The notes beneath the pieces were generated by a model. The model did not search any database, was not told the DNA's origin, and was given only the letters and a program-made list of their open reading frames with translations. The position numbers and the translations under genes are program-made. A DNA stretch of 3,198 nt from Escherichia coli (GTDB lineage: Bacteria > Pseudomonadota > Gammaproteobacteria > Enterobacterales > Enterobacteriaceae): assembly GCF_003334255.1 (NCBI RefSeq), contig NZ_QOWU01000128.1; one strand, 5' to 3'. Shown here piece after piece: positions 1 through 3,198 of the stretch; position 1 is the first letter of the stretch; every line of letters starts with the position of its first letter.

Positions 1-80
1 ACTACCATCGGCGCTACGGCGTTTCACTTCTGAGTTCGGCATGGGGTCAGGTGGGACCACCGCGCTACTGCCGCCAGGCA
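1..80 (-). rRNA. rrf: 5S ribosomal RNA, 5' 80 nt only (3' ~40 nt lie beyond the window start)
   Basis: Reverse complement of 1..80 reads TGCCTGGCGGCAGTAGCGCGGTGGTCCCACCTGACCCCATGCCGAACTCAGAAGTGAAACGCCGTAGCGCCGATGGTAGT, which matches my recollection of the first 80 nt of E. coli 5S rRNA. Position 80 corresponds to 5S nucleotide 1. Confidence 0.95.
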
Positions 81-172
81 AATTCTGTTTTATCAGACCG
101 CTTCTGCGTTCTGATTTAATCTGTATCAGGCTGAAAATCTTCTCTCATCCGCCAAAACAGCTTCGGCGTTGT
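81..172 (-). other. 23S-5S intergenic spacer (precursor rRNA, processed)
   Basis: 92 nt between the 23S 3' end and the 5S 5' end. Reverse complement reads ACAACGCCGAAGCTGTTTTGGCGGATGAGAGAAGATTTTCAGCCTGATACAGATTAAATCAGAACGCAGAAGCGGTCTGATAAAACAGAATT, which matches the E. coli rrnB-type spacer as I recall it (the same stretch is carried on common rrnB-terminator expression vectors). Confidence 0.85.

Positions 173-181
<9 letters not shown>
158..181 (-). other. 3' strand of the 23S precursor processing stem (RNase III-type)
   Basis: Transcript sequence ..CUUAACCUU/ACAACGCCGAAGCUG (23S 3' end plus flank) is complementary to the 5' flank plus 23S 5' end at 3068..3092. See the partner feature. Confidence 0.6.
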
Positions 182-3067
<2,886 letters not shown>

Positions 3068-3076
<9 letters not shown>

Positions 3077-3092
3077 TCACAACCCGAAGATG
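3068..3092 (-). other. 5' strand of the 23S precursor processing stem (RNase III-type)
   Basis: Transcript CAUCUUCGGGUUGUGA/GGUUAAGCG pairs with 158..181. CUUCGG pairs with CCGAAG, GUUGU with ACAAC, and GAGGUUAAG with CUUAACCUU (one G-U wobble, one G-G mismatch), so the mature 23S 5' and 3' ends are brought together. Confidence 0.6.
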
Positions 3093-3137
3093 TTTCTTAC
3101 GATTCATCATCGTGTTGCGAAAATTTGAGAGACTCAC

Positions 3138-3155
3138 GAACAACTTTCGTTGTTC
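3138..3155 (-). other. Spacer RNA hairpin: 7-bp stem with GAAA tetraloop
   Basis: Plus strand gaacaac-tttc-gttgttc is a perfect inverted repeat. In the transcript it reads GAACAAC GAAA GUUGUUC and sits about 30 nt downstream of the boxA-like element. Whether it is a boxB/boxC-like or processing structure is inference. Confidence 0.4.
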
Positions 3156-3184
3156 AGTGTTTCAATTTTCAGCTTGATCCAGAT

Positions 3185-3196
3185 TTTTAAAGAGCA
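3185..3196 (-). promoter_or_regulatory. boxA-like element (rrn antitermination / Nus-factor binding motif) in the spacer RNA
   Basis: Reverse complement of 3185..3196 is TGCTCTTTAAAA, an 11 of 12 match to the rrn leader boxA core TGCTCTTTAACA as I recall it. E. coli rrn operons are known to carry a second boxA in the 16S-23S spacer. Confidence 0.5.
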
Positions 3197-3198
3197 AA

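Follow-up and report, generated by a model that had tools for sequence, protein, structure and literature searches.

Genes and features of the locus

The window analyzed here, a stretch of 3,198 nucleotides, is part of an rRNA (rrn) operon of Escherichia coli read on the minus strand. In the direction of transcription it contains the end of the 16S–23S spacer, the 23S rRNA gene and the start of the 5S rRNA gene; tRNA genes are absent from the window. The rRNA genes were identified as follows:

173–3076, minus strand: 23S rRNA gene, full length (Rfam RF02541, 2875 bits)
1–78, minus strand: 5′ portion of the 5S rRNA gene, truncated at the end of the window (RF00001, first 80 positions)

The region of interest is the last 122 nt of the 16S–23S spacer, which reads from 3198 to 3077 and carries a boxA followed by a hairpin. 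A 299-nt query comprised of this spacer segment and the start of the 23S gene was 100% identical to many E. coli chromosomes, including that of K-12 MG1655. In one of the identical records the context is that of rrnE (purH, 16S, tRNA-Glu, 23S, 5S and yjaA). We also compared the leader and trailer of the window with those of all seven MG1655 operons and found no single operon identical to it. The leader is rrnE-like and has the rrnE-specific AAUCGUAAGAAAC (3077–3198). The trailer (79–172) has the GAAGCUG..GGAUGAGAG form common to rrnB, rrnD and rrnG. The operon may come from a different strain or be a recombinant. A scan of positions 2900–3198 for terminator-like sites (a G+C-rich hairpin followed by a U tract) returned none, and the same scan led us to reject a promoter reading of the region.

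A boxA in the 16S–23S spacer

The first of the two spacer elements is a motif for the binding of antitermination factors:

3184–3196, minus strand: spacer boxA UGCUCUUUAAAAA, the NusB–NusE binding motif of rrn antitermination (match to the leader boxA and to the consensus)

On the minus strand the motif reads, in context, UU-UGCUCUUUAAAAA-UCUGG. We took the reference leader boxA (TGCTCTTTAACAA) directly from rrnB, upstream of rrsB. The 13-mer at 3196–3184 (TGCTCTTTAAAAA) differs from it by one mismatch and is the sole match in the window at two mismatches or fewer, with 0.03 expected by chance. Its 9-nt core (UGCUCUUUA) is an exact match to the published consensus UGCUCUUUA(ACAA), and the motif is identical, together with the 25 nt 3′ of it, across all seven MG1655 operons. 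By these matches, the motif at 3196–3184 is the spacer boxA of the rrn antitermination system. A sequence-only reading of this DNA had called TGCTCTTTAAAA (3196–3185) boxA-like, one mismatch from the rrn leader boxA, and had likened it, together with the hairpin 3′ of it, to the known antitermination element of the spacer. The boxA part of this reading holds on the minus strand, and boxA lies where that reading had put it.

The rrn boxA binds NusB–NusE (S10) and re-establishes the antitermination complex for transcription of the 23S gene, giving read-through of terminators. The elements of rrn antitermination are ordered boxB–boxA(–boxC), and boxB is dispensable for the process. A boxB–boxA element of this kind in the rrn spacer is credited in the literature to two earlier studies (Berg, Squires & Squires 1989; Pfeiffer & Hartmann 1997). 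Along the rrn transcript, the spacer tRNA(s) and a boxB hairpin come before boxA, and 23S follows it. The boxB hairpin ends 0–3 nt 5′ of boxA in all seven E. coli operons, as does a hairpin in most of the 54 distinct upstream segments that we collected from other loci. The spacer boxB comes in two sequence types, one in the operons with tRNA-Glu and the other in those with tRNA-Ile/Ala, and it falls outside the window save for its last 2 nt (3198–3197).

A tetraloop hairpin 3′ of boxA

The second element is a stem-loop between boxA and the 23S gene:

3135–3159, minus strand: hairpin of 10 bp, capped by a GAAA tetraloop and with U3156 bulged out, interpreted below as a local leader–leader arm of a three-way junction (Rfam consensus, folding and covariation)

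The sequence-only reading had pointed to a perfect 7-bp hairpin (GAACAAC-GAAA-GUUGUUC, 3155–3138) about 30 nt downstream of boxA. The inverted repeat GAACAAC/GTTGTTC with its GAAA loop is indeed perfect (3155–3149 and 3144–3138), and it starts 29 nt from the last boxA base that this reading had cited. The Rfam consensus and folding extend the stem to 10 bp (CAC-U-GAACAAC/GUUGUUC-GUG, 3159–3135), which shortens the distance to 25 nt. The predicted pair probability of the hairpin is about 1.0 with the 23S trailer present or absent. A perfect 7-bp hairpin also appears in 8.7% of the dinucleotide shuffles of the 122-nt spacer, which is rich in A+U, and is not statistically remarkable alone; the case for the hairpin must therefore rest on comparison with other sequences. 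Its reality, as judged from sequence, is grounded in the comparative evidence that follows and in the Rfam covariance model of StyR-44. Our search of the accessible literature returned no experiments on the 3159–3135 hairpin.

We extracted the leaders and trailers of all seven MG1655 operons and found the hairpin to be nearly invariant among them. The loop-closing C–G pair is replaced by U·G in rrnH and rrnG, and the GAAA loop by GAGA in rrnB; these are the only hairpin differences, and all seven copies retain the pairing and the GNRA loop class.

Conservation of the hairpin position across genera

A scan with TGCTCTTTAAMAATYTGG of a collection of species-representative genomes identified 120 loci, about two thirds of which are rrn spacers of Gammaproteobacteria and a few of Betaproteobacteria. 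The rrn spacers share a common order: boxA, AAUYUGG..AAGCUGA, a variable segment and AGU(C)UCUCAA. We used the conserved anchors to delimit the variable segments, including at the 3′ side the Enterobacterales motif AGUCUCUCAA. A hairpin is predicted in 50 of the 53 distinct variable segments, with two hairpins in Photobacterium. All but one of the 50 fold better than their shuffles (z −2.5 to −7.6); the exception, at locus L116, is weak (z −0.9). The hairpin sequences are unrelated between genera, with stems that range from 7 to more than 25 bp. For example, Vibrionaceae, Pseudoalteromonas, Shewanella and others have a hairpin of unrelated sequence at the same position. In Citrobacter the stem has a long insertion at its tip. 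The spacing between boxA and the hairpin likewise differs among the relatives of E. coli. Among 60 terminal loops, 29 are tetraloops (7 GNRA, 8 UNCG, others diverse). E. coli has GAAA or GAGA, and other taxa have UUCG, UACG and many loops that are not tetraloops. An arm is absent from Aeromonas popoffii (L039), Moritella sp. PE36 (L024) and Zobellella iuensis (L077/L078), in which a linker of 10–11 nt occupies the position about 25–45 nt after boxA. These three genera retain boxA, AAGCUGA and AGUUCU(C/U)(A/G)A despite the armless linker.

Covariation was assessed in a MAFFT alignment limited to 12 Enterobacterales sequences of similar length, in which RNAalifold predicts the hairpin. In this alignment 92.6% of the cells are paired versus 70.3% in shuffles (none of 500 reached the observed value), and double-sided (compensatory) changes are present in seven of the eight hairpin pairs. 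The covariation score is 0.78 versus 0.35. As a control, sliding the 3′ partners by 1–3 columns reduced the paired fraction to 27–59%. The alignments of the seven operons and of related genera are consistent with a conserved hairpin whose stem is supported by compensatory changes. The sequence-only reading had named a hairpin without conservation or covariation, or a boxA lying elsewhere, as findings that would speak against it. The hairpin is conserved and covaries and boxA lies where it was placed, so neither objection arises.

The same scan recovered sites of a different kind in three Pasteurellaceae genomes (L018 14688–14819; L029 112–2047; L059 7493–7917). There, a boxA-like TGCTCTTTAACAATTTGGAAAAAACAGCGAAAAATC lies outside rrn spacers, about 80 nt upstream of small ORFs resembling a prophage early region. 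It may be a phage nut-type boxA.

Predicted pairing of the hairpin flanks with the 23S trailer

The complementary flanks of both 16S and 23S rRNA form leader–trailer helices that are cleaved by RNase III. In E. coli the 23S helix is usually described as having 27 bp and is required for 50S assembly; RNase III cuts 3 or 7 nt upstream of the mature 5′ end of 23S. We cofolded the 5′ flank of the window with the 23S–5S spacer, keeping 8–10 nt of each 23S end. All structures reported here are thermodynamic predictions combined with comparative counts. The predicted cofold, with an energy of about −94 to −100 kcal/mol, has the following parts:

3164–3185, minus strand: distal helix, leader strand (AAUCUG..UCAAGCUGAAAAUU), trailer partner 139–118 (mean pair probability 0.96–0.98)
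3117–3132, minus strand: middle helices, leader strands UCUCUCA and UUCGC, trailer partners 147–141 and 152–148 (mean pair probability 0.97–0.98)
3099–3113, minus strand: second small leader hairpin ACGAU..AUCGU (mean pair probability 0.97)
3069–3096, minus strand: proximal (processing) helix, leader strand, partner 182–154 (25 bp, mean pair probability 0.97)
118–182, minus strand: trailer strand, made up of the last 8–10 nt of 23S and the 23S–5S spacer, paired with the leader from 3185 to 3069 (cofolding and duplex energies)

The predicted pairs are 3185–3180/123–118, 3177–3164/139–126, 3132–3126/147–141, 3121–3117/152–148 and 3096–3069/182–154, and the mean pair probability is at least 0.94 in every helix. 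The proximal leader strand covers both the RNase III site, located about 7 nt ahead of 23S, and the initial 8 nt of 23S itself (helix H1). At the other end, leader pairing starts at 3185 and overlaps the last two A's of the 13-mer boxA. The only parts of the leader that fold locally are the 3159–3135 hairpin and the small hairpin at 3113–3099. Both flanks of the 3159–3135 hairpin pair with the 23S–5S spacer, which places the hairpin within the predicted pre-23S leader–trailer structure. Furthermore, a single unpaired trailer base separates the two leader–trailer helices on either side of it, so the hairpin would stand at a three-way junction.

The distal duplex of the window has an energy of −23.3 kcal/mol (z −7.2) that none of 300 shuffles equaled. 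The cognate distal duplexes of all 12 gammaproteobacterial taxa analyzed are similarly stable (−18 to −27 kcal/mol, z −4.8 to −7.8, none of 300 shuffles better). The architecture predicted for the window is also predicted for 14 additional taxa with the whole 23S gene in their loci, among them Enterobacter, Citrobacter, Xenorhabdus, Photorhabdus, Vibrio, Grimontia, Pseudoalteromonas and a Rhodocyclaceae genome. Other taxa also have an equivalent of the middle helix (e.g., GUUCUC/GAGAAC in Vibrio). A MAFFT alignment of the concatenated leaders and trailers (n = 12) put the trailer strands out of register; hence, we used the per-taxon duplex energies and an anchor-based pair table instead. This table reveals compensatory pair changes at five positions of the distal helix, for example from C–G to A–U or U–A. 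Covariation in this helix is limited because its leader strand is strongly conserved, a conservation that could alternatively reflect contacts with proteins.

A probable junction arm in the 23S rRNA precursor

These results suggest that the boxA and the hairpin are probably two separate, already known elements: the spacer boxA, and a hairpin that forms the arm of a three-way junction on an extended pre-23S leader–trailer structure. The leader from 3185 to the 23S 5′ end would pair with the 23S–5S spacer in four or five helical segments. Given its strong stem and, often, a GNRA or UNCG loop, the hairpin would fold right after it is transcribed and absorb the leader nucleotides that have no trailer partner. 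Folding of the hairpin would also juxtapose the flanking leader strands GCUGAAAAUU and UCUCUCA; once transcription had proceeded about 3 kb further and the trailer was made, these strands could zip up with neighboring trailer segments. A boxA that keeps the leader attached to RNA polymerase, as in the proposal for 16S, may aid this zipping. The hairpin would act by its shape and not by its sequence and could be dispensable in some lineages, and the RNase III cut would leave it in the excised leader fragment detected as StyR-44. The arm was lost in three genera; therefore, any role that it has is not essential. That the hairpin has a function at all is something we infer.

The proposed structure agrees with what is known of rRNA precursors. 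Leader–trailer helices were ubiquitous in a survey of 4464 bacteria, together with variable leader–leader and trailer–trailer helices, and the pre-23S of rnc mutants has as much as about 100 additional nt at each end. These extensions match the extent of the structure predicted here and lend it indirect support. The structure resembles the described leader–trailer helices (Liiv & Remme 1998; Warner et al. 2023; Gemler et al. 2024) in the long-range pairing of the 23S flanks, in the local leader–leader hairpins that interrupt the helix and in the importance of structure rather than sequence. It differs from the 27 bp described in E. coli by having further segments that reach up to boxA and a hairpin at a three-way junction. 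In the model for 16S, the leader strand (boxC) stays close to the RNA exit channel, held there by NusB-bound boxA, until the trailer has been made. A similar boxA-tethering mechanism for 23S is plausible by analogy, and trailer complementarity right up to boxA fits the proposed tethering of the leader strand by the antitermination complex. We also noted that the sequence AAUCUG is common to the spacer just after boxA (AAAAUCUGGAUC, 3180–3185) and to the boxC region of the 16S leader (CAAUCUGUGUGGG, L127 38–50); both are 5′ strands of leader–trailer helices that follow a boxA.

The main rival explanation, which we consider unlikely, is that the arm is a neutral expansion segment without positive function, at a junction that tolerates self-folding insertions. 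The wide variation of the hairpin in length and sequence is what this explanation predicts, and the two hairpins of Photobacterium, the long insertion at the stem tip in Citrobacter and the three genera with none are in keeping with it. It accounts less well for the presence of a hairpin at the exact position across Enterobacterales, Vibrionales, Alteromonadales and the one betaproteobacterial operon that was cofolded, for the frequency of stable tetraloops and for the preservation of pairing in the seven E. coli copies. The pattern fits purifying selection on structure, and selection against misfolding alone would look alike.

A more ambitious version of the junction-arm proposal is doubtful, and we rate it as quite unlikely. 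It would have a pre-23S leader–trailer structure about twice the usual 27-bp stem starting at the 3′ edge of boxA. boxA and AAUCUGG..AAGCUGA would then be the 23S counterpart of the 16S boxA–boxC, and the antitermination complex would keep the strand next to the RNA exit channel up to the time of trailer synthesis. The arm would be needed for the geometry or kinetics of the hand-over.

A nut-like reading of the hairpin

The sequence-only reading had interpreted boxA and the hairpin together as resembling the lambda nut arrangement. The boxA half of this interpretation stands; the nut-like half is not supported, for reasons that include the predicted pairing of the hairpin flanks with the 23S–5S spacer. 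In its full form, this explanation makes the two elements a single module in which the hairpin, like boxB, aids assembly of the antitermination complex for 23S. We judge it very unlikely. The loop of lambda boxB adopts a GNRA-like fold. The genuine boxA, the conservation of the hairpin structure and the GNRA tetraloop of E. coli (GAAA or GAGA) favor a nut-like module, and the likeness to lambda nut (boxA, spacer and an N-binding boxB) extends to a stem-loop 3′ of boxA with a purine-rich loop. However, rrn operons have the reverse order, with a boxB that is not required and that, in most relatives as in all seven operons, directly precedes boxA; the hairpin at 3159–3135 is 3′ of boxA. Whereas lambda nut has a short spacer, 25–29 nt separate boxA from the hairpin here, and the stem is highly variable (7–10 bp in E. 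coli, 7 to more than 25 bp overall). A conserved loop, as expected for recognition by an N-type protein, is lacking: the loops differ between genera and just 15 of 60 are GNRA or UNCG. Nor do Aeromonas, Moritella and Zobellella, which retain boxA, have an arm. Furthermore, the pairing of the hairpin flanks with the 23S trailer is foreign to lambda nut. With respect to the rrn boxB–boxA element, 3196–3184 is its boxA and the 3159–3135 hairpin lies outside it.

A hairpin 3′ of boxA in an rrn spacer should, for these reasons, not be taken for a nut-type boxB; its place is in the structure through which the precursor folds and is processed. The correction matters little beyond accurate annotation. 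The spacer boxA and the leader–trailer helices are textbook material, and, like the hairpin captured by Rfam, they are already known features of a well-studied locus. The domain scheme of the cyanobacterial ITS, reportedly introduced by Iteman et al. in 2000, offers a parallel. In cyanobacteria the order is Box-B helix, Box-A, D4 and V3 helix (PMC5658200). The linear order is the same as here, where boxB and boxA are followed by a brief conserved single-stranded block and then a variable hairpin, and by analogy the hairpin would correspond to the V3 helix in position only.

Relation to StyR-44

The spacer also matches an Rfam family of small RNAs along most of its length:

3084–3192, minus strand: StyR-44 match, RF01830 (124.9 bits versus a gathering score of 54; model positions 1–107 of 107)

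We know of no target for StyR-44. The family is named for a 109-nt RNA cloned from Salmonella Typhi (Chinni et al. 2010, PMC2943607). All seven operons encode it ahead of 23S; it arises by processing of longer precursors and was described as a possible metastable processing intermediate (PMC2943607). The window is a full-length, high-scoring member of the family (3192–3084), and the 3159–3135 hairpin is the central stem of its consensus structure. The match covers the stretch of leader that begins within boxA and extends as far as the RNase III cut. Its last position, 3084, is eight nt short of 23S and coincides with the RNase III site; therefore, StyR-44 is the excised leader. Its 5′ end (3192) falls inside boxA, between UGCU and CUUUAAAAA.

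The Rfam model also includes an outer stem, GCUGAAAAUU/AAUUUUCGC (3164–3173 with 3117–3125), that is limited to Escherichia, Enterobacter and Citrobacter and is invariant there. Folding of the leader by itself gives this stem a pair probability of about 0.2, which drops to 0 when the trailer is included. We rejected the outer stem as a structure of the precursor on account of this low probability and its restriction to three genera. It may instead represent the folded state of the excised fragment, or a structure that forms transiently during transcription. The Rfam model is restricted to the excised fragment, whereas the precursor is predicted to have leader–trailer pairing in place of the outer stem.

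It is highly improbable, in our assessment, that StyR-44 is a functional small RNA that acts in trans after its release, with the hairpin as a structural module. A discrete 109-nt RNA was detected on northern blots of S. Typhi and E. coli and was growth-rate regulated (PMC2943607), and the RNA has its own Rfam family. Yet the authors could not exclude a metastable processing intermediate (PMC2943607). Moreover, the 3′ end coincides with the RNase III cut, abundance would track rRNA synthesis in any case, and the outer stem of the model is confined to three genera and outcompeted by trailer pairing.

RNA polymerase can pause at sites stabilized by nascent hairpins. It is barely conceivable that the stable nascent hairpin some 40 nt after boxA is such a pause or NusA-responsive signal, slowing RNA polymerase so that Nus factors load, as a terminator-like or U-tract context is missing from 2900–3198, the boxA distance and hairpin size vary greatly, some genera are without the arm and the literature has the antitermination complex suppress pausing.

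Other hairpins of the locus

Two further hairpins were predicted around the 23S gene. The second small hairpin of the leader (ACGAUGAUGAAUCGU, 3099–3113) is shorter and has a different sequence in rrnG and rrnD; the other operons differ in its loop. A trailer hairpin (AUCAGAACGC..GCGGUCUGAU, 92–115; mean pair probability 0.94) lies just upstream of 5S, in the region of the 9S precursor and outside the leader–trailer pairing.
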